Shown here: positions 3,302-31,797 of the stretch, piece by piece | Layout: every line of letters begins with the position of its first letter | How positions within the stretch are numbered: the stretch's first letter is position 1 | Assembly: GCA_900234795.1 (NCBI GenBank) | Contig: LT962688.1 | Coordinates: forward strand, 930,001 to 962,000 | Length of the DNA: 32,000 nucleotides | Reading direction: 5' to 3' | From: Methylorubrum extorquens | GTDB taxonomy: Bacteria; Pseudomonadota; Alphaproteobacteria; Rhizobiales; Beijerinckiaceae | Translations under genes and position numbers: made by a program | The notes under the pieces: generated by a model | The model's database searches: none | What the model was told of the DNA's origin: nothing | Seen by the model: only the letters and a program-made list of their open reading frames with translations

Positions 3302-3802
3302 TCAGGCCGGCTCAGCCACCTTGCGAGGCCGACCAGCGCGCTTTGGCTTTGAGGCCATCGTCGGTTCAGGTGCCGGCTCAGGCGCAGGTTCCGCTTTCTT
3401 GCGCGGATTGCCCAGGCCGAGCTGCTTGGCCAGCGCCGAGCGCGAGGCCGAGTAATTCGCGGCGACCGAGGGGTAGTCGTTCGGCAGTCCGTAGCGACCG
3501 CGATACCCTTCAATCGTGAGGCCATGCACGCTGAGATGCCGCTTCAGGGTGCGATACGGCTTGCCATCGACAAAGGAGATCAGCGCGTCCGGCGTAACCG
3601 ACTTCTTGATCTGCGCTGGCGTCGGCTTCTCAATCTCGCTACCGGCTTCGGCTGCCGGTGTCGCCGACAGGCTGACAAACGCACCATGCACCTGCATTAG
3701 CAGGGTCGGCAAATCGCTTGCTGGGACGGAGTTGTTGCTGACGTAGGCAGCGACGATGTCCGCCGTCAACATCAGCAAATCGGGAGATGTGTTGTCGTCC
3801 AT
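3302..3802 (-). CDS. mucR: MucR/Ros-family transcriptional regulator, Cys-less variant with AT-hook-like tail
   Basis: ATG 3802 is preceded by AAGGAG. The product has KRHLSVHGLTIEGYRGRYGLPNDYPSVAANYSASRSALAKQLGLG, which matches the Ros/MucR core. At the Ros C-x2-C position it reads S-F-V-D. The C-terminus has PAPEPAPEP followed by KRAGRPRK. Confidence 0.85.
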   Translation of the reverse strand: MDDNTSPDLLMLTADIVAAYVSNNSVPASDLPTLLMQVHGAFVSLSATPAAEAGSEIEKPTPAQIKKSVTPDALISFVDGKPYRTLKRHLSVHGLTIEGYRGRYGLPNDYPSVAANYSASRSALAKQLGLGNPRKKAEPAPEPAPEPTMASKPKRAGRPRKVAEPA

Positions 3803-6224: not shown

Positions 6225-6464
6225 CGGAGTTCTCCGGCGCTGAGCGATCAGGCGCTGGTCAGCGAAGAACCGCGGCTCGACCCCTGCGGAGCACCTCAAC
6301 CACTTGTGTGAACACCGCAAGCCGATCTTGGGTCCAACCCAGCCCACCGTACTGCCTGGAAGCGGACCTTCCAGGCTTCTTCTATGGGTCGGGAGCGGCG
6401 GTTCAGGCATTGCGGACCCGATGTCGGCTTCTGGCGCAGAGCTGAACAAGCGGCATGCCAGCAT

Positions 6465-6514
6465 CTGACCCCAAGCGGATTTCGAGCGTGTGTCAGCCGA
6501 AGTTCTGCATAGGG
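6465..6514. repeat. 50-nt repeat, copy A (48/50 identical to 12274..12323)
   Basis: CTGACCCCAAGCGGATTTCGAGCGTGTGTCAGCCGAAGTTCTGCATAGGG was aligned by eye to copy B at the left edge of the IS. Confidence 0.8.
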
Positions 6515-6564
6515 GCAGAAAGCGGACGCGGCGCGAAGCGGCTTAGCGCAAGCCGCAGGCTGGA

Positions 6565-6599
6565 GCGGCTGCGGCAGCGGCAGCGGCAGCGGCAGCGGA
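6565..6599. repeat. hexanucleotide microsatellite (GCGGCW)x~6
   Basis: GCGGCT GCGGCA GCGGCA GCGGCA GCGGCA GCGGA, read directly. Confidence 0.9.
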
Positions 6600-6686
6600 C
6601 CGAGTTAACGCTGTTCTAAACGAACGTCCGACTCTTCGGAGACAAAATTGCAAGCGCGAGGTTCCTTCTACGGCCAAGCTTAGAGC

Positions 6687-7012
6687 GTGGGCGAGAAGGG
6701 AGTGAGAGCGCTGAATCACACCTTGCGACATGGGGACGAGCCCGTGCTCAGTCCCATTGCCTGGGCGCTGATCGAGCTGGACGAGATCGGCTATGTGGTG
6801 ACTTGCGCTTCGGCCGCCCCGACACCGCGGTGGCGCGTCGACACGGGCTCCGTGATGACATCTCGCCAGATTATCAGCTTCGCAATCGAGGCAACCGCGC
6901 ACGCATCGAGCCGGCTTCAGCCCTCGTCGGCGAGGTCGCCCGCGAAATAGGCACGAGGGACGACGGCCGAATGGCCGAGGTGCGGAAGCGGATGCTCGCG
7001 GCGGCCAGGTGA
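6687..7012 (+). pseudogene. possible frameshifted small gene carrying the third copy of the ...RMAEVRKRML tail
   Basis: Track ORF 6687..6950 and the out-of-frame ORF 6803..7012 overlap. Only the last roughly 35 codons of the second (EPASALVGEVAREIGTRDDGRMAEVRKRMLAAAR) look protein-like. Confidence 0.25.
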
Positions 7013-7026
7013 AGCGCCGCCGGACT

Positions 7027-7152
7027 TCACTCTGCGGCCTTGCGGGCGCTCTGCAAGACAGCGGTGAGCGCGGCGCCCGCGTGCTCGACGCTCATCTTTG
7101 CGAAATCGCCCAGCTCGGCCGGGATCGCGAAGCTTGGCTCCGTGGTGGCCAT
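7027..7152 (-). pseudogene. 41-codon ORF resembling the N-terminus of a phasin
   Basis: My own translation is MATTEPSFAIPAELGDFAKMSVEHAGAALTAVLQSARKAAE-TGA, with GGAGGGG 6 nt upstream of ATG 7152. It resembles the phasin start pattern F-[AE]-I-P-x-E-[LM]-R/G-D-[FL]-A-E/K-x-S-V-E. Confidence 0.3.
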
Positions 7153-7508
7153 GATGCCCCTCCAAACTTTGCGCCGCCGAGCAGTTGCTGTGTTGCCAGA
7201 GCTGCATGGTGCCTCGCGACGTAACCGTCAAGCTGAATGAAGCGGCGGCTCATACCGTTATAGCAGTTCGGCTTTCACGCTTGAGACTTCAGGGCGCCAT
7301 CTTGCTGCCGTCGTATACTTTATGCGAATTGATGCTCATTGTGCGCAATCATAATGTGCCGGATCGAATTGCGTAAACTGCGAAGGTTGTCACTTAATAT
7401 TTGTTTGTTCTGCAGGAAGCCGCGTGCATAAGCTTGTAAATTGTACCTTGGTATGAAATGAAAGCTGCAAGCCTAGCGAGATAAAGAAGTCGCAGGCGGG
7501 GGCATCAA

Positions 7509-7976
7509 ATGTTTATCGATGAGTGCGATCTCTCGCCGCCTGACCGTGGCTGGAACTACGAACCTTCGCGTGCTGAGCTGCTCCAGAAGATATCCGCTCC
7601 TCTGTACACAACCGATGCCGAGGGTTGGCTGACGTACTACAACGATGCCGCCGCCGAGCTGTGGGGCCGTCACCCTGTCATCGGTGAGGAGCGCTGGTGC
7701 GGCTCTTGGCGCATCTACGATACTGACGGCAAGCTACTGGCGCGCGAGCAGTGGCCATTGGCAGTCGCCTTCCAACAGAGCCGTGCTGTGCACGGTCTGC
7801 AAGCTATTCTCGAACAACCTGATGGTACTCGCGTGCCAGTAATGCCGCATCCGACCCTGCTGCGCGACAAATCAGGGATTGTGGTCGCTGGCTCAAACAT
7901 CCTTCTGAAGATCGCGCAACCGTCAGCTCTGCACAGCCAATTCAGTGACCCATCAAACACGGAGCTATGGGTATAA
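7509..7976 (+). CDS. stand-alone PAS-domain protein
   Basis: Track ORF. APLYTTDAEGWLTYYNDAAAELWGRHPVIGEERWCGSWRIYDTDGKLL...PDGTRVPVMPHPTLLRDKSG matches the PAS type common at the N-terminus of alphaproteobacterial HWE kinases. Confidence 0.75.
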   Translation: MFIDECDLSPPDRGWNYEPSRAELLQKISAPLYTTDAEGWLTYYNDAAAELWGRHPVIGEERWCGSWRIYDTDGKLLAREQWPLAVAFQQSRAVHGLQAILEQPDGTRVPVMPHPTLLRDKSGIVVAGSNILLKIAQPSALHSQFSDPSNTELWV

Positions 7977-8056
7977 CCCGTGCTTAAGCGAGCACTCGCT
8001 CCAAGCTGAGATCAGGCCAATGTTAAGGGCGTTGTTTTAGGGGGACTGAGGTGCAG

Positions 8057-8296
8057 ATGTTGGACGTGACCCGGACAGCTGTGGCGCAGGAGTTCGTTGA
8101 GATCCTCATACGTCGCGCCCAGCGCAGCGGAGACTGCCCTGCACAGATGCTGCGCGAGCACGGCCGGCGTTTAGCCCTGCTGGTGAAGCTAGCGACAGAC
8201 ACGCAGTTCCAAGCAGTTCTTGCCGAGCTGGATCGCCAGGCAACGAGGCTGGAGCTGAGCGCGGGGATAGAGATACGAGAAACAGTCTGCGCGTGA
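8057..8296 (+). CDS. hypothetical helical protein (79 aa)
   Basis: ATG 8057 with GAGG 6 nt upstream. The overlapping minus-strand ORF 8023..8361 is Ser/Arg-rich and less plausible. Confidence 0.35.
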   Translation: MLDVTRTAVAQEFVEILIRRAQRSGDCPAQMLREHGRRLALLVKLATDTQFQAVLAELDRQATRLELSAGIEIRETVCA

Positions 8297-8591
8297 CCTT
8301 TTCCATTCGCAGATGCTGCGGGGCGGCATTGATTTCCTGATGAGCCTAGCAAACAGATCATCCTGCTACCCTGATAAAATCGCTAGCAGGCTTTGTAGGG
8401 ACAGCTGGAAAGCATAGGCGCGTTCGGTGCCTTGGTCTCATTCAGCTTCGGCACGACAACAATCTTTTCTTCAGCGAACCTGCTTCTTCACGGCTCTGGT
8501 TCTCTACACAATGTAGCGCACCGCTAAAAATCCGCACTTAAGCTAGATTAAAGCGTTGGGCAGGACGTCAATTTAGAACATCGGACGACAG

Positions 8592-8954
8592 TCAGACGAA
8601 CAGCGCTCGAGCAAGCTGGGATGGTTCAACCGGCTTTTCACAGTGTGGCACGTGTGCGTAGCGCTCTGGTAGCGCTGTCTTGTTGTAGCCGGTAGCGAAT
8701 ACGAACGGAACGCCGCGCGCCAGCAAGGCTTCGGCGACCGGGTAGCTCATCACCTCATGTAGATTGATGTCGAGCACCGCGGCATCGAGTTCATGGGCGG
8801 CAATCAGCTCCAGTGCCGTTTTAACGCTCGCGGCCGGACCAATCACCTCAGCCCCGAGCGCTTCGAACTCGGCATCCATCGCGTTTGCGATGAGGTAATC
8901 ATCCTCCACTAAAAGCACACGGCATCCCACCCAATGGTTCGCTGCAGAGGTCAT
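8592..8954 (-). CDS. single-domain response regulator (receiver)
   Basis: RVLLVEDDYLIA...AAVLDINL...FATGY...CEKPV carries all canonical receiver residues. Its ATG overlaps the kinase stop as ATGA (8951-8954). Confidence 0.9.
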   Translation of the reverse strand: MTSAANHWVGCRVLLVEDDYLIANAMDAEFEALGAEVIGPAASVKTALELIAAHELDAAVLDINLHEVMSYPVAEALLARGVPFVFATGYNKTALPERYAHVPHCEKPVEPSQLARALFV

Positions 8955-10813
8955 TGGGCCCTTGTCCCTGCAAGCTCAGTGAGTGGCAGGTCAATGGAGC
9001 AACGCAGCTCATTCTCGCCAAGTTCATAGTCTGTGTGTGCCTTTAGCGTGTAGGGTAGCGCCTTCTCGATCAGCTCGCGCCCATAGCCCCGCCGGATCGG
9101 GTTGCTCTGTTGCGAACGGCAGATTCCCTCCTCCAGCCATGTCAGGGTGAGGCGCTGCTCTCCAGCTTCGGCGGTGTAGGTGTCCCAGCTGACCCAGAGT
9201 TCGGCCTGCTCACGGGACAGAGCACCGTACTTGCGCGCATTGGTGGCAAGTTCGTGCAGAGCCAGAGCCAACGTCTGCACACTGCCCTTTCGCAGCACCA
9301 CCCGAGGTCCCTCTACCGCGATGCGCTCGCGCATGTCTGTCGCTCCGAGCGCATCAAGCTCCATCTCGACAAGGGCCCGAATGGTAATTGGCTCCTGGTC
9401 AGAGCGGGAGAGTAGGCCCTGCACGCGAGAGAGTGCTGCGAGGCGGTCGTTGAAGTGCTCGCGGAACAACTCAGTCGGGCCGGTCTGAGCCATCGTTTGC
9501 TGCGCGATGGCGCGCACCACGGTGAGCAGGTTGCGGGTACGGTGCTGCAGTTCATCCACCATGACGGCTTGTCGCTGCTGCAGTTCGTGCAGCTCATGGA
9601 TGTCCATGGCCGCGCCGAACCACTCCGTTACCTGCCCCTCTCCGCCAAAGATTGGCACCTGCCGTGCGAGGAACCACCGGTATTGTCCATCGCGGCTACG
9701 CAGTCGAAACTGCGCGTCGATTGGCTGCTTGGTCTCGATTCCATGCACAAATGCCTCCTGCACGCCCCTACGGTCATGGGGATGCATTGGGGCGAGCCAG
9801 CCGAAGTCCTGCACTTCGTCTGCCGTTTGGCCGGTGTAATCGAGGAAGGATTGGTTCTCTGAGAAGGTGAGCCCGCTCGCGTCCGAGCGCCATAGAATGA
9901 CCGGCACAAGGTTCGCTAACGCCCGGAACCGCTCCTCGCTCTCGCGCAGGCGCTCCTCAGTGTGACGGCGCTCGCTCAAGTCAGCCGTGACAGCCAATAG
10001 CGTACTCGGCTCGCCCTCATGGTGCAGCGGTTGCACACGGCTGTTGGCCCACACGTGATTACCGTCAGGGCGCAGATAGCGTTTGTCCAGCGAGGCGGGC
10101 TGGTTTGTTCGAAGCGCCTCCGCGACAGCGATCAGGCTGGGGGGGACGTCGTCAGGATACGTCACGTCCATCACGGTGAGACGCAGCACCTCCTCACGGG
10201 TGCGCCCCAGGATACGGCAGAGCTCGTCGTTGGCACGTAGGAAGCGGCCATCCTGCGCAAGCTCGGACAGCCCGACTGCGGCGCTGCCGAAGATAGCGGC
10301 GAGTTGCTCGTCACTCTGACGTGCGATGGTTTCGGCTCGAGCCCGCCCGCCATTCTCAGTGCAGATCATATGGACGTAAGCGACTTGTCCGTCCTCGTCG
10401 CGCACAGGCATGAGGATGGCATCGGACACGTCTGCGTTCGCCTGACCCTCACAGCACATACTGAGTGCTTGGCCGTGGACCTGTATCACCTCACCTGCGA
10501 AGGCACGCTGGTAGAACGGCTCGGCCGCCGCCCAGCCAGCCGGGAAGGTATGAGGCAGTGTTTGGCCGAGAGCCGCGGGATGGTGCTCGCCTAGAAAGGT
10601 AGCAGCCGCATCGTTGTAGATCAGGAGGCGTTCTGGCCCGCATACGAGGCTGGTGGCAAGAGGGTTGGCCAGCGCCATCTCGACAGCAAGTTTCAGGCGT
10701 GGTGACCAGTGCTCGGCTGATCCGAGCGGCGATCCTGACCAGTCATGCGCGCGGATGCGCTCCACCATTTCACTACTGCCAGGCGGCCACTCGAGCGAGT
10801 TGCGACTGCCCAT
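8951..10813 (-). CDS. multi-PAS HWE-family sensor histidine kinase
   Basis: H-box ELQHRTRNLLTVVRAIAQQT, N-box HELATNARKYGAL, and C-terminal GYGRELIEKALPY. There are several PAS-like segments. GGAGAGG lies upstream of ATG 10813. Confidence 0.9.
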   Translation of the reverse strand: MGSRNSLEWPPGSSEMVERIRAHDWSGSPLGSAEHWSPRLKLAVEMALANPLATSLVCGPERLLIYNDAAATFLGEHHPAALGQTLPHTFPAGWAAAEPFYQRAFAGEVIQVHGQALSMCCEGQANADVSDAILMPVRDEDGQVAYVHMICTENGGRARAETIARQSDEQLAAIFGSAAVGLSELAQDGRFLRANDELCRILGRTREEVLRLTVMDVTYPDDVPPSLIAVAEALRTNQPASLDKRYLRPDGNHVWANSRVQPLHHEGEPSTLLAVTADLSERRHTEERLRESEERFRALANLVPVILWRSDASGLTFSENQSFLDYTGQTADEVQDFGWLAPMHPHDRRGVQEAFVHGIETKQPIDAQFRLRSRDGQYRWFLARQVPIFGGEGQVTEWFGAAMDIHELHELQQRQAVMVDELQHRTRNLLTVVRAIAQQTMAQTGPTELFREHFNDRLAALSRVQGLLSRSDQEPITIRALVEMELDALGATDMRERIAVEGPRVVLRKGSVQTLALALHELATNARKYGALSREQAELWVSWDTYTAEAGEQRLTLTWLEEGICRSQQSNPIRRGYGRELIEKALPYTLKAHTDYELGENELRCSIDLPLTELAGTRAQ

Positions 10814-11582
10814 GGGGCCTCTCCTACATGCCCTAACCCTAATCTTACCACGAATCGGAGCGAGTTGATCGGCCTCCAGTACGGCAATTTGCTCTTAATC
10901 CGGGTCGCTCAGAACGACGACCACGTTGGCAGACAGAGCCGCTGACAACAGACCGAGCCCAAGCATGGTATACTGCGACCTCGTAAGCTCCCTGAACCAG
11001 ATAGCAAGCAGAGGGGCAGGGACTAAAAGCCCGCTCTGGTAATCGGCTTCAAAGGCGGCGCTAAGAGGAAAGTCCTGTGCAGATGAGGCCGCGCGTCCGG
11101 CCTAACGTCCGATCTATGCCAGCGTCAGGAGGTTATGAGCGGTGAAGATCATCGCCTATTCGCTTCAGCCCTTGATCTGGCTTAAAACAGCCAGGCTCTG
11201 CAGGCGGAGCGGGATACCAATACCCTAGCCTTCAAGGGGCTTCAGCACGACAATATCGAGGTTCTAGCGTATCACCACTTCCGGCACTGCTATGCAGATC
11301 GGCCGCAGGCAATAGGCGTCGCCGTCGAAGGTGTCCTATGCGGGGTGAGCTCGGAGGGTTGGCAAATCGACTGTGGGTTGAGTCTCAGCCAACCTCCAGG
11401 CTCATTTAGTGCGAGCGTCTTCGGCCGATGATACACGTCAGCCGGCCCTAACAGGTACTTACGCAACCGCAGGCGGGTCAATTTGGAAAAAATCGGTACA
11501 AAGATGCCCAAACCCTGCAATCATAGCCTTCCCATCTGATCACGCGTCTGTGATCTTACGTCTCGGCCTTGGGGAGGAACCT

Positions 11583-11780: not shown

Positions 11781-12273
11781 TCGCTCTTCGGCAGCGGCGC
11801 CGCGCCTCAGTCCAAGGAACTTGGCGCCCATGTCACCATAGCAATTTCTCAAAAGTAATCTCTGACGCAGGGGCGATATGTATACAGACTCGCCTATCGG
11901 TCATCTCAGTATGGGGATGATAATGTCGACATGCGGTGAGTGATCTCAACCTAAGACGTGCCGCTGTCGTCCTACGTGTCTTGCTCAAAGCTATCAATCT
12001 GGCAGATGCTGCTCCCCTTGTTGCTGCCGATCGGGGTGCATTGCCGGACCGCGCATATGAAGCCCGCAGCATAAGCGTTTTGGTCCCAATCTTACGCCAA
12101 GCGGATGTGCGCGGACATGAGCGCGGCCAGCATGCCAAGGCCGCCACAAGCCTCGCGGCTGCGACTGCCTGAGCACCATGTTGAGCCGGTCACCGGGCGG
12201 ACGACCCGGCACGATACTGGGCGGCCCGCTCATCAGCACCTGAAGAGGCATCGACCTGCCGGCGAGCGAACAC

Positions 12274-12323
12274 CTGCCCCCAAGCGGACTTCGAGCGTGT
12301 GTCAGCCGAAGTTCTGCATAGGG
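12274..12323. repeat. 50-nt repeat, copy B (overlaps the left end of the IS)
   Basis: 48/50 identical to 6465..6514. Confidence 0.8.
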
Positions 12324-14082
12324 TCCAGGCTGTGTGAAAACGAGCTGGTCTGGTAGAGTGAAGCCCGATCTGGGAGGTCGGGATGAAGCGCTTCATCGCA
12401 GGCGAGGATCGTCAGCAGATCACGCTCCTTCCCGACTGTCTGGACGACTTCATCACCGCCGACAACCCGGTTCGCCTCGTCGAAGTGTTCGTCGATGAGC
12501 TTGATCTGGGCGCGCTCGGCTTCGCGGGCGCGGTGCCGGAGGCAACGGGTCGTCCCGCCTACCATCCGGCAACCCTGCTCAAAATCTACCTCTACGGCTA
12601 CCTCAACCGCGTCCCGTCGAGCCGTCGCCTCGAACGCGAGAGCCAGCGTAACATCGAGTTGATCTGGCTCACCGGTCGGCTGATGCCCGACTTCAAGACG
12701 CTGGCCGACTTCCGCAAAGACAACGGCCCGGCCATCCGGGCCGCCTGCGCGCAGTTCGTGGTGTTGTGCCGTCGACTGAACCTGTTCAGCAAGGCCGTCG
12801 TCGCGATCGACGGCAGCAAGTTCAAAGCGGTCAACAACCGCGACAAGAACTTCACCGCCGCCAAGGTCGAAGCCCGGTTGGCGCAGGTCGAGGCGAGCAT
12901 CGGCCGCTACCTCGCGGCACTGGACCGGGCCGACCGCGAGCCGAGCGACATCGCCGAGGCGCGCACGACACGGCTCAACGACAAGATCGCGGGCCTGCGC
13001 GAGCAGATGCAGGCTCTCCAGGCGATGGGCCGGCAGGTCGAGGCCGCCCCCGACGGCCAGGTCTCCCTAACCGACCCCGACGCGCGCTCCATGGCGACCA
13101 GCGGCAAGGGCACCGGCATGGTCGGCTACAACGTCCAGGCCGCCGTCGATGCCGAGCATCACCTGATCGTGGCCCACGCGGTGACCAACGTCGGCAGCGA
13201 CCGGGCGCAGCTCGCGCCGATGGGGCTCCTGGCTCGGGAGGCGACGGGGTGTGCCACACTCACGGTGCTGGCCGACCGGGGCTACCTCAGCGGAGAGCAG
13301 GTGCTGGCCTGCGAGGGCACTGGCGTGCTGCCATGCGTGCCCAAGACCCTGACCTCGGGCCATGCCAAGCGCGGCCTCTTCACCGGCCAGGACTTCGTCT
13401 ACGATGCCGGACACGACCGCCACACCTGTCCCGCCGGCCAGCACCTGACCAAGGGGGCCGCCCGGTCCGATCGCCAGGCCGAGGGCGATGCGATGGATCA
13501 CTACCGCAACCTCACATCCTGCCTCGACTGCCCGCTCAAGCCTCGCTGCACGCCGACGGAGACGCGGCGGGTCAAGCGCTGGGTGCACGAGGGTGTGCTC
13601 GATGCGATGCAGGAGCGGCTCGATCGGATGCCGGACGCGATGAAGATCCGTCGCCAGACCGTGGAGCATCCGTTCGGCACGCTGAAGGCCTGGATGGGTG
13701 CAACCCACTTCCTGACCCGGACCTTGGCCAAGGTCAGAACCGAGATGAGCTTGCAGGTTCTGGCCTACAACATGAAGCGGATGATCCAGATCTTCGGGAT
13801 CCGCCCGCTGCTGGCGGCCATCCGGACCTGAGGCCAAGCAGCTCGATCTCCGGCGCCACTCGGTGCGCTCGCCCCGATCCCGAGGGATCTGCGTTTCCAC
13901 ACGGCCTCGGTCGAAAGCGGCGGTTCTGCGCCTGCCGGCTCAAGGTCGGCTCATGGCGCACAGCAGCGGTCAAGCCTCCGCCTGCTCAACTGCCGTTTCT
14001 CATCCCGAGCCGCCCTCTCGTTGCGCGATCAGACATGCGAGAAAAATGACCGTTTTTCAGCCGCTTAGATGTGTGCAGAAAC
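12311..14082 (+). mobile_element. IS1182-family insertion sequence (boundaries approximate)
   Basis: A single intact transposase ORF is flanked by imperfect inverted ends. Left end: TTCTGCA-N16-TGAAAACG (12312-12342). Right end reverse complement: TTCTGCA-N14-TGAAAAACG (ending about 14081). No target duplication was identified. Confidence 0.65.
12383..13831 (+). CDS. IS1182-family (IS5-like DDE) transposase, 482 aa, intact
   Basis: The N-terminus MKRFIAGEDRQQITLLPDCLDDFITADNPVRLVEVFVDELDL and ...TGRPAYHPATLLKIYLYGYLNRVPSSRRLERE are typical of IS1182-family transposases. GGGAGG lies upstream of the ATG. Confidence 0.9.
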   Translation: MKRFIAGEDRQQITLLPDCLDDFITADNPVRLVEVFVDELDLGALGFAGAVPEATGRPAYHPATLLKIYLYGYLNRVPSSRRLERESQRNIELIWLTGRLMPDFKTLADFRKDNGPAIRAACAQFVVLCRRLNLFSKAVVAIDGSKFKAVNNRDKNFTAAKVEARLAQVEASIGRYLAALDRADREPSDIAEARTTRLNDKIAGLREQMQALQAMGRQVEAAPDGQVSLTDPDARSMATSGKGTGMVGYNVQAAVDAEHHLIVAHAVTNVGSDRAQLAPMGLLAREATGCATLTVLADRGYLSGEQVLACEGTGVLPCVPKTLTSGHAKRGLFTGQDFVYDAGHDRHTCPAGQHLTKGAARSDRQAEGDAMDHYRNLTSCLDCPLKPRCTPTETRRVKRWVHEGVLDAMQERLDRMPDAMKIRRQTVEHPFGTLKAWMGATHFLTRTLAKVRTEMSLQVLAYNMKRMIQIFGIRPLLAAIRT

Positions 14083-16922: not shown

Positions 16923-18466
16923 CTATCGGGCCCTCACCAGACGAGGCTCGCGTGGCACGCTCTCGGGGTGACCCGTCGGGCCAGAGGCACACCGGGTTTG
17001 GTTGCGCCCGCCTGCCTTCGCCTCGTAGAGGGCCGCGTCCGCCGCCCGGTACAGCGCCTCCGCCGGCTCCCTGGGCGAGCCGGAGCCGGTCGCGAGGCCG
17101 ATGCTCACCGTGACCGCGCCGGCTCCGATGCCGGCTGAGGGCAAGGTGAGCGCCGCAACCGCCTCGTGGACCTTACCGGCGATGCGCGAGGCACCTTCCT
17201 CGTCCGTGTCCGGCAGCAGCAGGACGAACTCCTCGCCGCCCACTCGGGCCACGAGGTCGTCGGGCCGGTTGACGCTCGCGGAAAGACAGCGGGCCAGCGC
17301 CTTCAGCACCTCGTCGCCGACGGCGTGGCCGTAGCGGTCGTTATAGCGCTTGAAGTGGTCGGCATCGACGATGAGCAGCGACAGCGGCTTGCCCTTATGC
17401 CACGCTCTCTTCCAGGCACGCTCCGACACCTCGTCGAAGCGGCGCCGGTTCGGCAAATCGGTCAGGGCATCGGTCCGCGACAGCCGGGCGAGTTCCGCCT
17501 GCAGCACAGCGCGGCGGCGAAGATCCCGTCCGTACAGCAGAGACAGGAACACGGTCAGGCCGCACAGAACCAGGACCACGCTGCTGATGACGAGGGCCTT
17601 GAGGCGCCAGCCGGCCTCGATGTCGCGAGTGGCGAGTGCCACGTTGAGGACAAGTGGCAGGTCGCCGACCCGGTTGAAGGTGTAGTGGCGCTCGACCCCG
17701 TCGCGCACCGAGGTGCCCACGAAGCTCCCGGAGCGCTCGGCCACGAACCGCCGGAAGGTCGAAGCACCGGCGATGTTCACGCCGATGTCCGCCTCCTCAT
17801 AGGGCTGGCGCATAAGGCGCGTGGCGTCGCGCAGGTAGAGATTGATCGCGCCGTCCCGACCGAGGCCGATCTGGTCGAAAAGGCGACTGAAGTAGTCGAG
17901 CTTGAGGCCCGCCAGGACCACCCCGCTGAAGGAGCCATCGGGCTTGTCGATGCGGCGGCTCAGCACCACGATGCGCGAACCCGTTAGTCGGGAGAACAGC
18001 GGCTTGCTGATGTGCAGGCCCAGGTTCGGATCGGCCTTGTGGGCCCGGAAGTAGTCGCGGTCGGCGTTGTTCAGACGGCGCGCTGGGACCGTCCCGGCGT
18101 CCAGGACACTGTCGCCGTGCTCGTCGAGGACGAGCATCACGCCGAGGTCGCGCGCGGTCCCGGCACGGTCGAACAGGACGAGCTGGCGCATCTCAGGGCT
18201 CAATGCGTCGAGGCCGGGGACCCGGAGATTGTCGACGACCGCCTGCAGGGGGAGAGATCGATGATCTCGACGTTGCGGGCGATGTCGCGCTCGATGACCT
18301 GGAGCAGGTTCTTCGAGGTCTGCTCAGCCTTGTCCCAAGCGTCCTGCCGCAGGTCGAGCAGCATCAGCCCGGAGACGACGAGCATGCCGACAGGGGCCAG
18401 CACGCCCAGCGCGATCCAGGTGCGGGCGGAGCGGAGCCGTCGCGCGAGGCGTGGCGGCAGGACCAT
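16923..18466 (-). pseudogene. membrane-bound Cache-like sensor diguanylate cyclase (GGEEF, I-site present) split by a frameshift at G5 run 18248-18252
   Basis: ORF 18200..18466 encodes the TM helix plus ...NLLQVIERDIARNVEIIDLSP. The frame of ORF 16923..18203 stays open upstream and reads LQAVVDNLRVPGLDALSPEMRQ... from codon 18248. Downstream are RDYF, a second TM, RPDDLVARVGGEEF (RxxD five residues before GGEEF) and a GGDEF domain. Confidence 0.8.
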
Positions 18467-25654: not shown

Positions 25655-26158
25655 TCAGCCCATCTTCGAGCGTGAAGCCGCGTTGATACGTTCCACGATG
25701 TCCTCGAAGATGTCGGGAGCATCATCGTCCAGGCTGATTGGCTGACCGCTCGTGTCGAACTCCACGATGGCCGTTGCGAGCCTCGCCCAATTGCACTCGT
25801 CGTTGGTCGGATCGTAGCTCGCCCTGGCGTTGATGGCACCGCGCCAGACATCGTCGCCCTCGATCTCGGCCAGGATCTCCTGGCACGAAAGCCACATCCC
25901 GGCATCTGGGTGCGACCGCTTCAGCTCGTCAAGAACCTGCAACGCGCTGTCGAAGCTCCCGAAGCTCAAGGCATAACGACGAGCAGGACGATCCGGCAGC
26001 CCGATGTGAATGGCGAACTCAGGCGCCTCTTCGAGCCAGTCCAGCATATTGTGGTCGTCGGTCTCGTAGTAGCTCTCCAACATGAAGTAGGTCGCGCGAG
26101 AGAGGTCGGCGCGCTGGGCCTGGTTGAGGTGGTTCAGGTTGAGGTGATTGTACGTCAT
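25655..26158 (-). CDS. orphan protein (167 aa), tandem paralog of 26248..26754
   Basis: ATG 26158 (MTYNHLNL...) lies within track ORF 25655..26341. It shares ...RP.RR...[AG].MWLSC.....AEI.G.D..RGAI.ARA.... with its neighbour. Confidence 0.6.
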   Translation of the reverse strand: MTYNHLNLNHLNQAQRADLSRATYFMLESYYETDDHNMLDWLEEAPEFAIHIGLPDRPARRYALSFGSFDSALQVLDELKRSHPDAGMWLSCQEILAEIEGDDVWRGAINARASYDPTNDECNWARLATAIVEFDTSGQPISLDDDAPDIFEDIVERINAASRSKMG

Positions 26159-26247
26159 CGAGAAAGGGTCTCTGAAATGTGCTGGCGCTTCTGTGGCGCT
26201 AGAGTTTGAAAACGAGGGGGTGATGTTGCGAAAAGCGCCGATCCCGA

Positions 26248-26754
26248 TCAGGCCGACAGGGGCTCGAAATACCGGGCAATCTGCCAGAAGACGTGATCGA
26301 GCCCGGCATCGAAATCGACCTTGCGGCCGTGAGTGTCGCATTCGTCGATGTACATCGCGACGGCGGCCCAGGCGCTGAACCGCGCCCCATCGTTGTTCAT
26401 CGCGGCGCGGGCCTTGATCGCGCCACGCAGGGGGTCAGGACCGACAATCTCTGCCCGGCCGTCCTCGCACGACAGCCACATTTTGGCGGTCGGATTGATC
26501 TGCTTGAGGTTCCAGAGGGTGACCGCGGCTCCTTCCGCGAAGGTCACATCCTGGAACAGCCACCGACGATCCGGACGGCCGTCACGGGTCACATGGACGA
26601 CGAAGCGACCGTCCTGCTCTGCCGCCTCGATTGAGGTCACCCGGTGTTGGCTCAAGCGGCAGATCTCCGCCTCGAGCGTGAAATCTGAGGCGTGCTTCAG
26701 ATCATCGATTTCGGCGTGCGAGAGCTTATCGAGTTCGGTGATGAAGTAGGTCAT
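26248..26754 (-). CDS. orphan protein (168 aa), tandem paralog of 25655..26158
   Basis: Track ORF; starts MTYFITEL... Confidence 0.6.
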   Translation of the reverse strand: MTYFITELDKLSHAEIDDLKHASDFTLEAEICRLSQHRVTSIEAAEQDGRFVVHVTRDGRPDRRWLFQDVTFAEGAAVTLWNLKQINPTAKMWLSCEDGRAEIVGPDPLRGAIKARAAMNNDGARFSAWAAVAMYIDECDTHGRKVDFDAGLDHVFWQIARYFEPLSA

Positions 26755-26946: not shown

Positions 26947-27327
26947 TCATCGCGTCTTCTTGGAGGCCGGCGTGGGCCAGTTCTTCTGCATGAACGCGTA
27001 GAGCTCTTCGTGCGGCATGAGTGGCTGTCCCATATTTCCACGAGGGCCATCTTCGGCCTTGAAGGGCGCCAGGGCCGGGTGAGTCCGCTCCTTGATCCGC
27101 TCAGCTGCCCGCTCGGGCGTGAACTCAAGCCAGCGAACTCGTTCTCTGAGGCGTGCGATCTCCGCGTCGCGCTCGTCGAGCATCACCAAGAGGGCAATGA
27201 TTTCTTCATTAGCGTCATCGGAGGAATTGGCGTTTTCGATCATGACCCAATTCTGCCGACGAACGGGCGGGAAGTCGAAATTATTCTGACTAGAAAAATT
27301 TATCGACGGATCGGCTGTCGATATCAT
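26947..27327 (-). CDS. orphan protein with coiled-coil-like centre (start 27327 or 27243)
   Basis: Track ORF, with no SD at either start. With start 27327 the gap to the divergent gene is only 36 nt; with start 27243 (MIENANSSDD...) it is 120 AT-rich nt. Confidence 0.45.
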   Translation of the reverse strand: MISTADPSINFSSQNNFDFPPVRRQNWVMIENANSSDDANEEIIALLVMLDERDAEIARLRERVRWLEFTPERAAERIKERTHPALAPFKAEDGPRGNMGQPLMPHEELYAFMQKNWPTPASKKTR

Positions 27328-27363
27328 CTAATACATCTACAACGTTTCATAGAAGCTATTCTC

Positions 27364-28107
27364 ATGGACTCCACAAAGCTTAAAAATCTGCTGGGGCAGC
27401 TCGCGGCCTTGTCCCCCGAACTCGCCGCCGGCATCGAAGAATTGACGAACTCGCAACCCACGAACTTCGACGGAAACGACATCGAAGATCACCTTCTGTC
27501 GAAGGCCGACCCTCGAACTGGCCCACTCCCGCCCAAGAACTCGATCACGTTCATGAAAACGACCCTCTGGGACAACGGCGCGGAGAAGAAGGTCACGAAG
27601 AACGGGAACACCGGCAAGCGCACGAGGTACACGGTCACGATCGAGGCCTACACGATGCCGCTCGAACGGCTCGTGACCCTCGGCCTCATCAACACGTACC
27701 AGTTCAAAAGGAACGTGCAGCTTCGCAGCCGCGATCGCTTCGTTCCCCTCGTGAAGAAGAACCATGCCTCCGGTCGTATCGACCGCGACTTCCACGACTT
27801 CTTGATCGAGTACACGAACGACACGTACATCGATCCCGACGACCTCTTCGGCTTCGTTCTCGACGCGGGCACCTGGAACTACCACTCGGACCAGTTCCTG
27901 CACCTGAAGTGGGCGACGTCCGGTGAACCGCGCCTGTTCGTGGTCCACGGCGACGACATGACCGAGGTCAATACGTGGGACGAGATCGAGAACCCGAAGG
28001 GCGAAGCACGCAAGAAGTACGAGAACGAGATCGACAACTGCGGATATCGAAATGCGCAGAGGACGAACTCGGCCACAAAGAAAAGGACGGGTCGCCGGCC
28101 ACGGTGA
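27364..28107 (+). CDS. orphan protein (247 aa) with basic C-terminal tail ...TKKRTGRRPR
   Basis: ATG 27364 (MDSTKLKNLL...) lies inside track ORF 27010..28107. It has lower GC than its surroundings. Its stop is immediately followed by the 15-bp inverted repeat. Confidence 0.65.
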   Translation: MDSTKLKNLLGQLAALSPELAAGIEELTNSQPTNFDGNDIEDHLLSKADPRTGPLPPKNSITFMKTTLWDNGAEKKVTKNGNTGKRTRYTVTIEAYTMPLERLVTLGLINTYQFKRNVQLRSRDRFVPLVKKNHASGRIDRDFHDFLIEYTNDTYIDPDDLFGFVLDAGTWNYHSDQFLHLKWATSGEPRLFVVHGDDMTEVNTWDEIENPKGEARKKYENEIDNCGYRNAQRTNSATKKRTGRRPR

Positions 28108-28108
28108 T

Positions 28109-28168
28109 CCGATATCATAGACTAGATTAGATCTATGTACGAAGTACCTAATTTAGTCTATGATATCG
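28109..28168. repeat. perfect 15-bp inverted repeat CGATATCATAGACTA (28110-28124 / 28154-28168) with AT-rich spacer
   Basis: Read directly; it extends to 18/19 pairing. It starts 2 nt after the stop of 27364..28107. Confidence 0.9.
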
Positions 28169-28192
28169 CTTGCGCTGAAGGGGTCTATGTCT

Positions 28193-28387
28193 TCTATGAT
28201 ATCGGCCGCCTCCGGCTCCCTCGTCCTCGAAGTCCGGTGACCTCGATCCTGCATGAACTCGACCCCGTGACCGAGTTCTTGTGACCCCAGTGATCTCGTA
28301 GCTGGACCTCGTGATTCCGGCCTCGAAGCCCGAACATCCTCGATCTTCGACCCGGGAGTGATACCGGGGCCGCACCGATATCATAGA
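28193..28387. repeat. second inverted pair of the same 13-mer (TCTATGATATCGG 28193-28205 / CCGATATCATAGA 28375-28387) bracketing 169 nt
   Basis: Read directly. The bracketed segment has stops in all plus frames, six GTGAY and four CCTCGA motifs. Confidence 0.9.
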
Positions 28388-28515
28388 GAATATTGCTCGT
28401 CCGACCTCGAACCGGTAGACGGCCAGGGCCGAATGGGAGGTCTGCCAGACACCGGACGTCACCCACGGTCGAAGGTACCACATGCCGGAAGAGTCTCGCG
28501 CGCGTACGGTTCTGC

Positions 28516-28959
28516 ATGAACCTCCGCATCCCGCTCCCGCCGGCCGTTGCCCGCATCTACGAGGCCGTGGCCGAGCTCTCCACCCGCTATCCCGGTCGCA
28601 GTTTCACGCCGGACGGCCATCTCGTCGGCTCGATCGGCGAAGTGGTCGCCGCCGAGGCTCTCGGCCTCACCCTCTACCGACAATCTTCGCCTGGCCACGA
28701 TGCGGTCGATTCGACAGGCCGCGAGGTGCAGATCAAGATGACGGGCGGTAATGGGGTTGCGCTCTACGCCACCTGCGCACGTCTCGTCGTCCTGAAGGTC
28801 GTCTCCCCAACCGAGGCGGAGATCGTCTTCGACGGCGACGGTGCGCGAGCCTGGGAGCAGGCGGGCAAGATGGGCAAGAACGGGCAGCGGCAGATCTCCC
28901 TCTCTAGGCTGCGCAGGATCGCGGTCGCGGCCGCTCCGCAAGAGGTAGAGGCGGCGTGA
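28516..28959 (+). CDS. small stand-alone PD-(D/E)xK-like (Mrr-catalytic-domain-like) protein, 147 aa
   Basis: ATG 28516 (MNLRIPLPP...) lies inside track ORF 28393..28959. GSIGEVVAAEALGL...GHDAVDSTGREVQIKMT resembles the E...D...QxK arrangement of Mrr-type nucleases. No SD was seen. Confidence 0.5.
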   Translation: MNLRIPLPPAVARIYEAVAELSTRYPGRSFTPDGHLVGSIGEVVAAEALGLTLYRQSSPGHDAVDSTGREVQIKMTGGNGVALYATCARLVVLKVVSPTEAEIVFDGDGARAWEQAGKMGKNGQRQISLSRLRRIAVAAAPQEVEAA

Positions 28960-30811: not shown

Positions 30812-31378
30812 GTGGCCGGCGAGTCCCTGCATGTGAGCAGCATCATGAGAGACGAGAATACGGCCGCGCACTTGAACGTCGAGGCGAAGGTCGAAGCGTT
30901 GAGCGGCGCCCTTTTAGGCGACGACGAGCTTGGTGCTGTGGTTAGGGGGCACATCTACATCGAGAACGAACTCATAGCGTTCATCAAGGCCCGACTTCCG
31001 AAGCCGGAGGCAATCAAAGATCGCGACATCGATTACAACATGCGCGTGAAGCTGGCGGTTGCTCTCGGTCTCGATCCAAGCTTCGAGCCCGCCCTGAATT
31101 TTGTCGGTTCACTTCGCAATCAGTTCGCTCACAGCCTGGAGGCGAGGATCGGTAAGCAGGAGGCGGTGAATTTCGAGAAGGCTCTGGGGGCACACAGAGC
31201 GATCACGTCGGCTGCGTATCGGCAGGTCCACATCCATCTCGGAACCGAAGCCGCAGCGATCCCGACCAAGCAGCAAGAGCCGAAGGATCGGATCATCTTG
31301 TGCTTCGTGACGCTCTGGGCCGGCATCTTGATAGAGGCTCACGCGGCAGCGCTGGCGCGATCCGAAGATCAACCGTAG
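30812..31378 (+). CDS. HEPN-like protein (Rx4H motif RNQFAH); start 30812 (GTG) or 30845 (ATG)
   Basis: Track ORF with an all-helical look. ...GHIYIENELIAFIK... and ...FVGSLRNQFAHSLE... fit the HEPN R-[N]-x3-H signature. Confidence 0.5.
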   Translation: MAGESLHVSSIMRDENTAAHLNVEAKVEALSGALLGDDELGAVVRGHIYIENELIAFIKARLPKPEAIKDRDIDYNMRVKLAVALGLDPSFEPALNFVGSLRNQFAHSLEARIGKQEAVNFEKALGAHRAITSAAYRQVHIHLGTEAAAIPTKQQEPKDRIILCFVTLWAGILIEAHAAALARSEDQP

Positions 31379-31797
31379 GGGCCGCGAAACAGGTCGCCGA
31401 GAGCCTTCCGCCGGAACAGAGTCCGCCAGCGCCGCCGCTGGTGCTCGGGCTGATCGTGCAGGATGTGACATCGCTGGCAGAAGGCCGCGAGGTTCGCCGA
31501 GCTGTTGTCGGCCGTATCATGGTTCCGGTGCGCGGTGGCGAGCACCACCCGCGTCGTGCGCGCGCTCCCGAGCACATCGTCGGAGCCGACCGCGAGGCAG
31601 ACGATTGCGCCGGCTCCGTCGCGCCAGGAGGCAGCCTCCTCGTCCCACCATCGCCCATCGCCCAGGTGGAACACGGTCTGACCGTGCGGGCGCCCGCAGC
31701 CCTCGCACCGGCCCTTCGCACGGCCGAAGCGGATCACCGCCGAGAGCTGCGGCCAGTCGATCGGATAGAAGAAGCGGTGCTCGCGCCGGATCGGCAT
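31369..31797 (-). CDS. HNH-type endonuclease-like protein (142 aa)
   Basis: Track ORF with RCEGCGRPHG ... LATAHRNHDTADNSSANLAAFCQRCHILHD (Cys pairs plus H-N-H pattern). Its 3' end overlaps the HEPN-like gene by 10 nt (convergent). Confidence 0.65.
   Translation of the reverse strand: MPIRREHRFFYPIDWPQLSAVIRFGRAKGRCEGCGRPHGQTVFHLGDGRWWDEEAASWRDGAGAIVCLAVGSDDVLGSARTTRVVLATAHRNHDTADNSSANLAAFCQRCHILHDQPEHQRRRWRTLFRRKALGDLFRGPYG

Follow-up and report, generated by a model that had tools for sequence, protein, structure and literature searches.

Replication origins and control loci of the iteron type, such as P1 oriR/incA, F oriS/incC, and lambda ori, carry motif copies near the gene of their binding protein together with an AT-rich region, and a downstream iteron cluster can act as a control ('handcuffing') locus. 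The operators of P1 C1 and the 'stoperators' of mycobacteriophage L5 consist of an asymmetric 12-13-bp motif, which occurs in both orientations, sometimes in inverted pairs, in short intergenic regions of prophages. At the transcript level, the boxB stem of lambda comprises 5 bp, while the res site of resolvases (Tn3/gamma-delta) consists of three dimer-binding subsites of about 25-34 bp located upstream of the resolvase gene. In the origin of SaPI, short iterons lie directly 3' of the initiator ORF and are oppositely oriented around a central AT-rich region (PMC9371898). For the temperate phages and satellites of Alphaproteobacteria, including those of Methylobacterium and Rhizobiales-type hosts, the modules of replication and regulation are poorly charted.

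The window (the whole stretch of 32,000 nucleotides analyzed here) contains four exact copies of the 12-mer CGATATCATAGA, at 28110-28121 (+), 28157-28168 (-), 28193-28204 (-), and 28376-28387 (+), packed into 280 bp. Both the four copies and the 13-mers with an extra C had been reported in the initial annotation and were found as described, and chance does not account for them, as none of 100 shuffles reached this count. When up to two mismatches were allowed, seven matches were present in the window compared with 1.17 expected, and again 0/100 shuffles reached seven. The TGA stop codon of a 247-aa gene occupies 28105-28107, and the distance of 2 nt from the stop given previously is true of the 12-mer, whereas the 13-mer begins 1 nt past the stop. 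Copies 1 and 2 do form the perfect 15-bp inverted repeat that had been described, but these 15 bp are the termini of a longer one, with arms at 28110-28130 and 28148-28168 that are 95% complementary and a loop containing GTAC-GAA-GTAC. Copies 3 and 4 are indeed a perfect 13-bp inverted pair, 169 nt apart. The start-to-start spacing of copies 1 and 2 is 47 bp, and that from copy 2 to copy 3 is 36 bp. The hairpin at 28110-28168 has a G+C content of 32% and a predicted DNA fold of -16.3 kcal/mol (z -6.3), while the core at 28109-28205 has 39% G+C versus 63% in the whole window. Of the 12 occurrences of the hexamer CATAGA in the window, six are inside 28116-28387.

Table 1. Features of the repeat element and its neighborhood (positions in the window)
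Feature	Position	Strand	Remark
Small coiled-coil ORF, start 27327 or 27243	26947..27327	-	divergent; co-conserved with the 247-aa gene
Degenerate 10/12 copy CGATATCATCTA	27319..27330	+	upstream divergent region of the 247-aa gene
247-aa gene, sparse unannotated protein family	27364..28107	+	ORF
AT-rich hairpin-forming inverted repeat, copy 1 (+) and copy 2 (-)	28110..28168		21-nt arms, 17-nt loop
Linker CTTGCGCT...GGGGTCTAT, then copy 3 (28193-28205, -)	28169..28205		near-invariant
G+C-rich spacer with short strand-biased repeats	28206..28374	+	variable length; C/G ratio 1.43
Copy 4 (CCGATATCATAGA), opposite in orientation to copies 2 and 3	28375..28387	+	exact match

The 247-aa protein had been regarded as an orphan, which is essentially right; it is part of a very sparse family without annotation and is not unique (three clusters in 5.8e9 proteins; 39 representatives at E<=1e-3 in 1.84e9 proteins). 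The protein had no match in Pfam, NCBIfam, PHROG, or PADLOC, 28 family members searched against Pfam, NCBIfam, and PHROG were likewise without a match, and the family has no sequence match in the PDB. No match was obtained by tblastn of the window protein against sequenced phages and against plasmids, nor when two distant family members were searched against phages, and a scan of the JGI metagenomes with the protein alignment yielded no relative. The candidate P0027 (935 aa, nine matched stretches) is a translated tandem repeat and was not accepted as a relative. An AF2 model of the protein reached a pLDDT of 88.7, and Foldseek, which the initial annotation had proposed to run on such a model, found no PDB fold match (best E 0.16, TM<0.25); matches of two models to PURA, Whirly, and Mediator folds were discarded as noise (E 0.2-0.7, TM<0.2).

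Family members are 210-260 aa long with a near-neutral pI (median 7.8), share the motifs GP.P..IT..Q..WDNG, RYK.TIEAWT.PA, FKRNVQLR, DLFG.I.D..GW.Y...QFV, and DRCGY, and have near-invariant residues at Thr62, Asp70, Arg116, Tyr173, and Gln177. The basic C-terminal tail to which attention had been drawn (GRRPR) is shared by the window protein, P0001, and P0002 but absent from P0003 and the distant members. No recognizable initiator type (Rep_3, RepA_N, winged helix, HUH, or helicase with an origin-binding domain) was detected in the family, and no HTH or other regulator domain in the 247-aa protein. As neither a ParB nor a ParA domain was found in this protein and the neighboring ORFs tested, the suggestion that gene and repeats form a ParB/parS-like pair is unsupported.

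The same layout of gene and repeats is kept in the related loci L001 (65% protein identity), L023 (70%), L005 (53%), and L009-L011 (98%). The initial annotation had named a lack of repeats at homologous loci as evidence against itself; instead, four lineages with 53-98% protein identity keep them. Among these close lineages, the spacings of 47 and 36 bp are identical and the element begins 2-3 nt past the stop, with the hairpin of copies 1 and 2 at the same position and the same 47-bp spacing in L001, L005, and L023. Between the window, L001, and L023, the core is 94-98% identical versus 80-84% for the coding sequence (third positions 75-79%), and the comparison with L005 gave 77-79% for the core and 62-64% for the coding sequence (third positions 55-61%). 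These alignments show the element to be under stronger constraint than the 247-aa gene. Variation of the linker 28169-28205 across four lineages is confined to 28176-28178, and the hairpin arms are nearly invariant, while the loop and the interior between copies 3 and 4 are variable. Single uncompensated changes occur in copy 2 of L009 and copy 4 of L001, and L005 carries a C>T change in four copies. As far as the aligned lineages tell, it is the sequence of the repeats, not their structure, that is conserved.

More distant family members, with 22-30% identity, were found in L014, L015, L017, L019, L026, and L028. Each of these loci possesses an AT-rich hairpin of 21-45 bp (28-39% G+C in DNA of 54-62% G+C), located 10-130 nt past the family gene or past one additional small ORF, and the hairpins are built from a lineage-specific CATAG-type motif, with further copies of the arm motif present. 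A box of the CTCGCTTCGCTCG type follows the hairpin in five of the distant loci and is degenerate in L014. After the box comes a CTCG-rich tract in L015 and L019, which are the loci tested for bias, while L026 and L028 have RTTACT repeats in its place. In L019, the sub-repeats ACAGTAGAT are retained as units, out of the register of the hairpin, which suits binding sites better than a strict stem. This comparison of loci shows that the element exists and is linked to the 247-aa gene family across deep divergence.

Depending on the lineage, copies 3 and 4 are separated by a spacer of 88 to 181 nt. At 28206-28374, CTCG occurs eight times on the plus strand versus once on the minus strand and GTGAY six times versus none; only these strand-specific counts are significant, and the hexamer CGTGAY showed no window-wide enrichment. 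The CTCG bias is also seen in L001, L005, L023, L015, and L019; the interior of the spacer has a C/G ratio of 1.3-1.8 in eight of ten loci and seven to eight CTCG copies on the plus strand versus none or one on the minus strand. A small ORF of 49 aa running through the hairpin (28135-28284) was rejected because it lacks an ATG in L005 and its differences are mostly non-synonymous and without a third-position pattern.

A hairpin that starts 1-3 nt past the stop in five lineages (window, L001, L005, L023, and L015), followed by a tract with C>G on the coding strand, would fit a transcript-level role equally well. The hairpin may be a 3'-end structure of the mRNA (a stabilizer, RNase III site, or pause) and the CTCG tract a rut-like sequence, together making a Rho-dependent terminator or antitermination site in a position comparable to that of lambda nutR/tR1, which follows the first gene of an early operon. 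On this view, copies 3 and 4 would be the two arms of a second long-range stem, or the copies would permit the alternative RNA stems put forward in the initial annotation. The RNA of 28100-28400 is predicted to fold into two domains (-123.6 kcal/mol, z -6.65), L005 has a matching C-G>U-A change in both stems, where the flank of the 3b-4 stem also pairs better, and the pairing of each copy with two partners could in itself freeze the repeat sequence.

Against such a role, there is no U-tract, a consensus scan found no terminator-like site at 28110-28168, and the stem, with its low G+C content, is followed by CTTGCGCT, unlike an intrinsic terminator. The stems are AT-rich in G+C-rich DNA and invariant in sequence while the loops vary, the opposite of what is usual in RNA, and the changes in the L009 and L001 stems are uncompensated. 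Covariation gave the alternative stems no support, since 31 of 45 pairs never vary and the three double changes were reached by 105 of 500 shuffles; furthermore, copies 2 and 3 are not complementary, so that a classical attenuator is impossible. A rut site would be expected to have less G than the 22-28% seen here, and Rfam had no match at gathering score in the window, which also speaks against an RNA element; sub-threshold matches in related loci were to microRNA models on the L018 hairpin and to sRNA and snoRNA models elsewhere. We regard a transcript-level element as possible, though rather unlikely. A pairing between the 5' UTR and copy 3, in which a 9-nt match (TCATAGAAG in the window and CATAGAACA in L001) resembled covariation, was rejected because the duplex predictions are not conserved (z 0.03 in L001, a different register in L005).

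The 247-aa gene diverges from a run of small ORFs that point leftward. The divergent coiled-coil ORF showed tblastn identities of 74% to L001 and 45% to L005, lies within a collinear block (window 26971-28235, L001 9600-10854), and had no family match in Pfam, NCBIfam, and PHROG searches. The degenerate fifth copy reported in this upstream region exists as a 10/12 match, which overlaps the ATG that would start the divergent ORF in its longest reading, but it was seen only in the window and L009; the aligned position reads AGATCTCCTCTA in L001 and CGATGTTCTCTA in L005, and its membership in the repeat family is doubtful. These observations bear on the idea that the 12-mers are operators of a phage regulator, perhaps the 247-aa protein itself, which would overlap promoters in the AT-rich core in the manner of P1 C1 operators or stoperators and control transcription leaving the 247-aa gene or antisense transcription into it. 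The divergent position of the gene is like that of prophage regulators, the window lineage has the 10/12 copy upstream of its own gene, the motif includes a -10-like hexamer (TATGAT; TATAAT in L005), a leftward promoter-like site of consensus level, TAGACC-N16-TATCAT, is present at 28187->28160, and a rightward TTGCGC-N19-TATGAT was read by eye on the invariant linker. However, the promoter matches are weak (9/12 positions, with a spacer of 19 nt), the copy upstream lacks conservation in L001 and L005, and the lineage-specific motif does not recur upstream of the gene in L014, L015, L017, and L019. In addition, the lack of an HTH or other regulator domain counts against operators, and these normally sit 5' of the regulator gene, not 3'. 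An operator array is unlikely in our view.

The surroundings of the 247-aa family are prophage- or satellite-like and do not resemble a small plasmid-like replicon, the setting that had been suggested. L028 is a minimal island with a tyrosine integrase, an HTH_3 repressor, a VapE-like helicase, the family gene, and the hairpin, while in L017 a RusA-type resolvase gene directly follows the element. In L001, L005, L023, and L019, the element adjoins a small serine recombinase that has a candidate site of its own, an arrangement like that of plasmid-like maintenance regions. In L001, a 129-nt direct repeat flanks 10.2 kb, beside an apparent C-terminal fragment of an IS3-type transposase (by eye).

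The convergent resolvase gene (212-231 aa) lies 0.3-0.8 kb downstream of the element in the four loci that have it, inverted repeats of 13-19 bp flank a short variable segment, and synteny ends just past copy 4, the final conserved piece before the window departs from the other lineages; past about 28395 the alignment of the window with L001, L005, and L023 is lost, and these loci continue with a conserved block and the serine recombinase. The inverted 13-mers could be crossover or accessory sites of this recombinase, with the segment of 90-170 bp between copies 3 and 4 invertible, or they could make up a res-type site. However, the element is present without an adjoining recombinase in the window, L009-L011, L014, L015, L026, and L028, and the four copies in the window are still identical. 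A better candidate site, a conserved ACAGGRCCGT tandem with the inverted CTGTACGG, is closer to the recombinase gene, the half-site spacings of 47 bp (center to center) and 36 bp do not suit the 28-34-bp dimer sites of res, and the element lies past the 3' end of the recombinase gene where there is one. The segment between copies 3 and 4 has a uniform orientation in 13 contigs of three lineages, none of which is an inversion variant, and across four lineages as well. Recombination sites of this kind are very improbable. Integron attC sites share with the hairpin its place after a stop codon and its 59-nt length, and direct reading of 28105-28175 found no attC core (GTTRRRY/RYYYAAC).

The proposal that the repeats are terminal inverted repeats of a small mobile unit finds an apparent counterpart in a 24-nt inverted match of 79% (27313-27336 versus 28187-28210), which flanks the 247-aa gene. 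The upstream arm is, however, not conserved in other lineages, and the homology extends beyond the upstream copy, which therefore marks no boundary. The motif was not found elsewhere in the window, although a MITE or REP would be expected to have dispersed copies. A scan for the pattern CGATATYATAGA-N25-50-TCTATRATATCG in 185,579 species genomes (GTDB), IMG/VR, and JGI metagenomes gave unrelated matches only (a Gelria coding region, an AT-rich terminator of a phage, a hairpin resembling a terminator behind an unrelated gene, and contig-end palindromes), so a dispersed repeat was dismissed. With chance ruled out by the shuffles, this group of explanations (a mobile unit, a dispersed repeat, or chance) is hardly credible.

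The four 12-13-mers are best explained, if tentatively, as a putative binding-site array of the origin/iteron type that would act at the DNA level. Of the readings offered in the initial annotation, sites tied to the 247-aa gene in a Rep/ori-type arrangement give the best comparative fit, because the repeats are co-inherited with the gene, more conserved than it, and swapped for lineage-specific equivalents in distant relatives. The genes next to the element in L028, in L017, and in the loci with a serine recombinase also speak for it, as does the similarity of the layout to the SaPI origin. The conserved cis-acting element consists of a 96-bp AT-rich core, in which an inverted pair and a third copy are held at fixed spacing, a strand-biased G+C-rich array of short repeats, and a distal inverted copy, and together with the upstream gene it makes up a single module of alphaproteobacterial elements that are prophage- or satellite-like. 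A sequence-specific protein is proposed to bind the repeated 12-mers, which flank an easily melted, cruciform-prone AT-rich segment, and to nucleate a nucleoprotein complex there. The adjacent 247-aa protein is the obvious candidate binder and, if so, would stand for a new fold among origin- or site-binding proteins, although another co-inherited protein, such as that of the divergent coiled-coil ORF, could take this part. We infer that the element acts as DNA rather than RNA, with the 247-aa protein as the putative binder and replication initiation or control as the putative process.

Clustered motif copies beside an AT-rich region, as in an iteron origin, are present at this locus. Several observations count against an origin, such as the lack of a recognizable DNA-binding or initiator domain, the near-neutral pI of the family, and the absence of nearby DnaA boxes (TKATCCMCA, up to one mismatch, no match between 24319 and 29038). 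Also against it are the repeats of 12-13 bp, mostly inverted and unlike classic direct iterons of 17-22 bp, and the separate replication genes of L014 (DnaB and DUF1376), 7 kb from the element. Going one step further, the family might be a new class of putative DNA-binding proteins that recognize origins or other sites by their sequence and have a new fold. Together with the palindrome and repeats, it would constitute a replicon or maintenance module of a new kind in prophages and satellite-like islands of Alphaproteobacteria, a proposal that we advance with considerable doubt. In a more extreme version, the protein might act enzymatically on the extruded hairpin, nicking or joining it via the conserved Tyr.

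The pair of cis-element and gene defined here has been kept by family members whose protein identity ranges from 98% to about 25%. Since the protein has neither a library annotation nor a structural relative, the pair offers a directly testable handle on a putative, unknown protein-DNA recognition system that comprises a 247-aa protein and a 12-bp site on a 300-bp fragment. Should the element prove to be an origin, vectors for these hosts would gain a new minimal replicon, and searches for such elements a marker; should it be a terminator or operator, it would be a more ordinary feature, still attached to an unknown phage protein family.

Compared with the P1 C1 operators and L5 stoperators, the locus has a similar asymmetric motif of 12-13 bp in both orientations, but its copies all lie within 280 bp instead of being dispersed, and an HTH is lacking in the candidate protein. 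Like lambda nutR/tR1, the element directly follows the first gene of a rightward unit and consists of a hairpin and then a C>G tract; unlike it, the hairpin is 21-45 bp and AT-rich, the stems rather than the loops are conserved, and no N-like protein was identified. With P1 oriR/incA, F oriS/incC, and lambda ori, it shares multiple motif copies by the gene of the presumed binder and an AT-rich neighbor, while it differs from them in having no Rep_3, RepA_N, or WH domain, no DnaA boxes, and only four full copies, which are inverted rather than tandem direct 17-22-mers. The SaPI/PICI origins differ in that their adjacent protein is a helicase with a winged-helix domain, not a protein of 210-260 aa without a recognizable fold, in that their repeats are 5-6 bp rather than 12-13 bp, and in that the AT-rich part here is a long palindrome. 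In common with the SaPI/PICI origins, however, the repeats begin straight after the ORF, the center is AT-rich with its two sides oppositely oriented, and the motifs differ by lineage, in step with the adjacent protein. Both belong to integrative phage-related islands, and in one relative, L028, int, a repressor, and a VapE-like helicase are located directly upstream.

Four exact copies of the 12-mer CGATATCATAGA had been placed by the initial annotation just downstream of the gene for a 247-aa protein, and all four were recovered where it had located them. When up to two mismatches are allowed (≤2), the window holds seven matches vs. 1.2 expected, a number reached in no shuffle of the window, and chance or a TIR/MITE origin is extremely improbable. 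Copies 1 and 2 form the outer portions of an inverted repeat (21-nt arms and 17-nt loop; the hairpin), which starts 2 nt past the TGA of the gene, while copy 3 follows copy 2 at a spacing of 36 bp and copy 4 lies inverted 169 nt beyond copy 3. The G+C content is 63% in the window, 39% in the core spanning copies 1-3 and 32% in the hairpin, and six of the 12 CATAGA sub-motifs of the whole window fall inside the element. Within the spacer that separates copy 3 from copy 4 (the interior), where the C/G ratio is 1.43, CTCG occurs eight times and GTGAY six times on the + strand, against one and zero on the − strand (0/5000 shuffles). A degenerate fifth copy (10/12 match) reported upstream of the gene is indeed present, overlapping what may be the start codon of the divergent coiled-coil ORF, but it is not conserved in the homologous loci L001 or L005. 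The dispersed repeat considered in the initial annotation was not found: scans of the hairpin pattern over IMG/VR, 185,579 genomes (each from a different species) and JGI metagenomes returned unrelated sequences only, and the motif string occurs in the literature only in unrelated eukaryotic, viral-infection and fungal papers. The element is not a dispersed repeat.

The element is a real non-coding feature and under selection. Contigs encoding close homologues were compared, including L001 (65% protein identity to the window), L023 (70% across the portion available), L005 (53%) and L009-L011 (98%), and the repeats, whose loss from homologous loci would have spoken against a tie to the gene, are kept in all of these lineages. 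They share a common layout of stop codon, 2-3 nt, copy 1, copy 2 (47 bp start-to-start), copy 3 (a further 36 bp), a G+C-rich spacer of variable length and an inverted copy 4; in L024, which is cut off by rearrangement, the element is missing. The 96-bp core is conserved above the CDS and far above third codon positions, with identities of 94-98%, 80-84% and 75-79%, respectively, among the window, L001 and L023, and of 77-79%, 62-64% and 55-61% versus L005. The window and L001 are collinear from the divergent coiled-coil ORF through the gene to the core.

The element is linked to the 247-aa gene family across deep divergence, and its motif diversifies with lineage. Six distant loci encode members at 22-30% identity, namely L014 (a Methylobacterium chromosome), L015, L017, L019 (an IMG/VR prophage contig), L026 and L028, and in all of them the element follows the gene itself or one additional small coiled-coil ORF. 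Each carries an AT-rich hairpin (21-45 bp, 28-39% G+C; fold z-scores between −5 and −12 for the four distant loci that were folded), which is built from lineage-specific motifs retaining a CATAG-like core, i.e., CATAGTACTAC in L014 and L015, GTCATATATACAGTAA in L017, AAAGTCATAGATA and ACAGTAGAT in L019, and ACATAGTAAC in L026 and L028. Additional copies of the arm motifs are found beyond the hairpin, and a CTCGCTTCGCTCG-type box is clear in five of these loci and degenerate in L014. For L015 and L019, the CTCG tract and its strand bias could be confirmed, while L026 and L028 possess RTTACT repeats in its place. In a crude scan, the hairpin ranked first or second in strength at nearly all loci, and the sub-repeats of L019 are kept as units, out of hairpin register.

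From selection, deep linkage and lineage-specific motifs together, we infer a DNA-level protein-binding array, a reading that is probable. A lineage-specific protein would bind the repeats as a site array, and the adjacent 247-aa protein would be the prime candidate. In L005, copies 1, 2, 3 and 4 read CGATATTATAGA, with an extra copy retaining the C form, and uncompensated single changes are present in copy 2 of L009 and copy 4 of L001. Among five sequences, 31 of 45 pairs show no variation, double changes are restricted to three pairs in L005, and no covariation excess over shuffles was detected (observed value reached in 105/500). Hardly any change is seen in the arms, while loop and copy 3-4 interior vary freely in sequence and length; this pattern, together with AT-richness in G+C-rich genomes, is what inverted double-stranded recognition sites would be expected to show, and differs from that of a purely structural RNA. 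It is also compatible with an RNA whose every copy must pair with two partners, and the region folds well (z −6.65). A transcript-level hairpin with a rut-like terminator or antitermination site would fit both the C>G strand bias and the way the hairpin abuts the stop codon, but it is rather unlikely given the missing U-tract, the AT-rich, invariant stems and the lack of covariation.

The left 25 kb of the window contains ordinary alphaproteobacterial genes (Ros/MucR, HWE histidine kinase, MCP, GGDEF protein, pyruvate kinase, IS, MFS transporter and GntR regulator), and only hypothetical and phage-type genes occur from ~25.6 kb on. The family gene diverges from a leftward series of small ORFs, among which an HNH endonuclease is frequent; an operator array over weak divergent promoters is an unlikely reading of the repeats. 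L015 carries virion and tail genes further on, L017 a RusA-type resolvase directly 3' of the element, and L028 a minimal integrative island of tyrosine integrase, HTH_3 repressor, VapE-like helicase, family gene and hairpin. Moreover, a convergent serine recombinase (212-231 aa) is located 0.3-0.8 kb beyond the element in L001, L005, L023 and L019, separated from it by a conserved non-coding block of tandem ACAGGRCCGT and inverted CTGTACGG, which is a better candidate recombinase site than the 12-mer element. Because the window lineage, which has neither recombinase nor block, keeps four perfect 12-mers, these are independent of the serine recombinase, and a role as recombination or inversion sites is very unlikely.

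Several other features were observed in these regions (table). The DUF6998 gene of the window stands where other lineages have the recombinase module, and the DUF5629-like ORFs seem to be part of the same element since L005 has a relative. The L026 palindromes may be MITE-like or artefacts of assembly, and the block common to L015 and L017 resembles a promoter or operator.

Coordinates of the features in the window and in homologous loci (L-numbers) carrying the family gene
Locus	Feature	Position	Remark
Window	247-aa gene	27364-28107(+)	
Window	Divergent coiled-coil ORF	26947-27327(-)	
Window	Copies 1, 2, 3, 4	28110(+), 28157(-), 28193(-), 28376(+)	
Window	Fifth copy	27319	
Window	Hairpin	28110-28168	
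Window	Core; interior	28109-28205; 28206-28374	
Window	CATAGA cluster	28116-28387	
Window	Collinear with L001	26971-28235	
Window	DUF5629-like ORFs	25655-26341(-), 26248-26754(-)	Adjacent, overlapping paralogues; weak match
L005	Relative of DUF5629-like ORFs	5469-6257	
Window	DUF6998 protein	28516-28959(+)	E 1e-41; phrog_35225; weak PADLOC match to methyl-directed type II restriction enzyme
Window	HNH endonuclease	31369-31797(-)	phrog_1571, E 3e-27; HNH genes likewise in leftward operons of L001, L005, L017
Window	64-nt direct repeat (89%)	6451-6514, 12260-12323	Second copy just upstream of DDE transposase gene 12383-13831
Window	121-nt direct repeat (79%)	343-463, 837-957	Left part
Window	55-nt inverted repeat (82%)	872-926, 6950-7004	Left part
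L001	129-nt direct repeat (86%)	7528-7656, 17748-17876	10.2 kb apart; brackets entire island with family gene; left copy adjoins apparent IS3-type transposase C-terminal fragment (read by eye only)
L001	ACAGGRCCGT/CTGTACGG block	~10985-11150	Recombinase gene 3' end
L005	ACAGGRCCGT/CTGTACGG block	~3595-3757	Recombinase gene 3' end
L023	ACAGGRCCGT/CTGTACGG block	~800-945	Recombinase gene 3' end
L019	ACAGGRCCGT/CTGTACGG block	6878-6931	Recombinase gene 3' end
L028	Minimal integrative island	5786-10748	
L028	Second repeat cluster	9623-9713	CTACAGACCC direct and inverted, straight after VapE stop
L026	Four near-perfect palindromes (~105 nt)	1842-1946, 3464-3571, 7420-7530, 9526-9630	Arms 51-54 nt, loops 3-4 nt
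L015; L017	Common block GCGTCGAG-N15-GCGTCGAG...GAGGAAAAATTGAACCG	~9170-9240; ~9400-9470	Upstream of next rightward genes

The 247-aa product has no match in Pfam, NCBIfam, PHROG or PADLOC, and only three similar clusters were found among 5.8 billion proteins. When 1.84 billion representatives were searched exhaustively with a profile, 39 proteins were obtained at E ≤ 1e-3; these make up a genuine family of ~180-270 aa with common motifs, near-neutral pI and a few nearly invariant residues, T62, D70, R116, F126, G163, Y173 and Q177. No member contains a Pfam domain, the family has no sequence relatives in PDB and was not found in sequenced phages, and no PLSDB plasmid matched the window protein. 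The AlphaFold2 model from a 28-sequence alignment is confident (pLDDT 88.7) and predicts a helical hairpin at the N terminus, followed by a linker and then an alpha/beta domain. The Foldseek comparison proposed in the initial annotation yielded no significant match in PDB (best E 0.16, TM < 0.25), nor did a BFVD search with an earlier low-confidence model only (pLDDT 69). None of the libraries searched describes the protein family, its fold or this particular element.

Within the broader protein-binding reading, an origin/iteron-type assembly site was chosen for its likeness to described SaPI origins, and by this analogy is plausible though tentative. Against it, no DNA-binding or initiator domain is recognisable anywhere in the 247-aa protein, no DnaA boxes were found near the element, the repeat geometry is non-classical, and L014 has separate replication genes. 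More speculatively, and with doubt, the family might recognise origins or sites through a novel fold, possibly act enzymatically via the conserved Tyr and Arg, and define a new replicon module. Features recalling SaPI origins (PMC9371898) are short repeats that begin right behind the ORF, an AT-rich segment in the middle, copies oriented towards one another, a one-sided short-repeat array and, among the neighbours, a VapE-like helicase, RusA and a recombinase that has a site of its own. Repeat-rich cis sites of mobile elements that adjoin their presumed binding protein are a familiar kind of feature.
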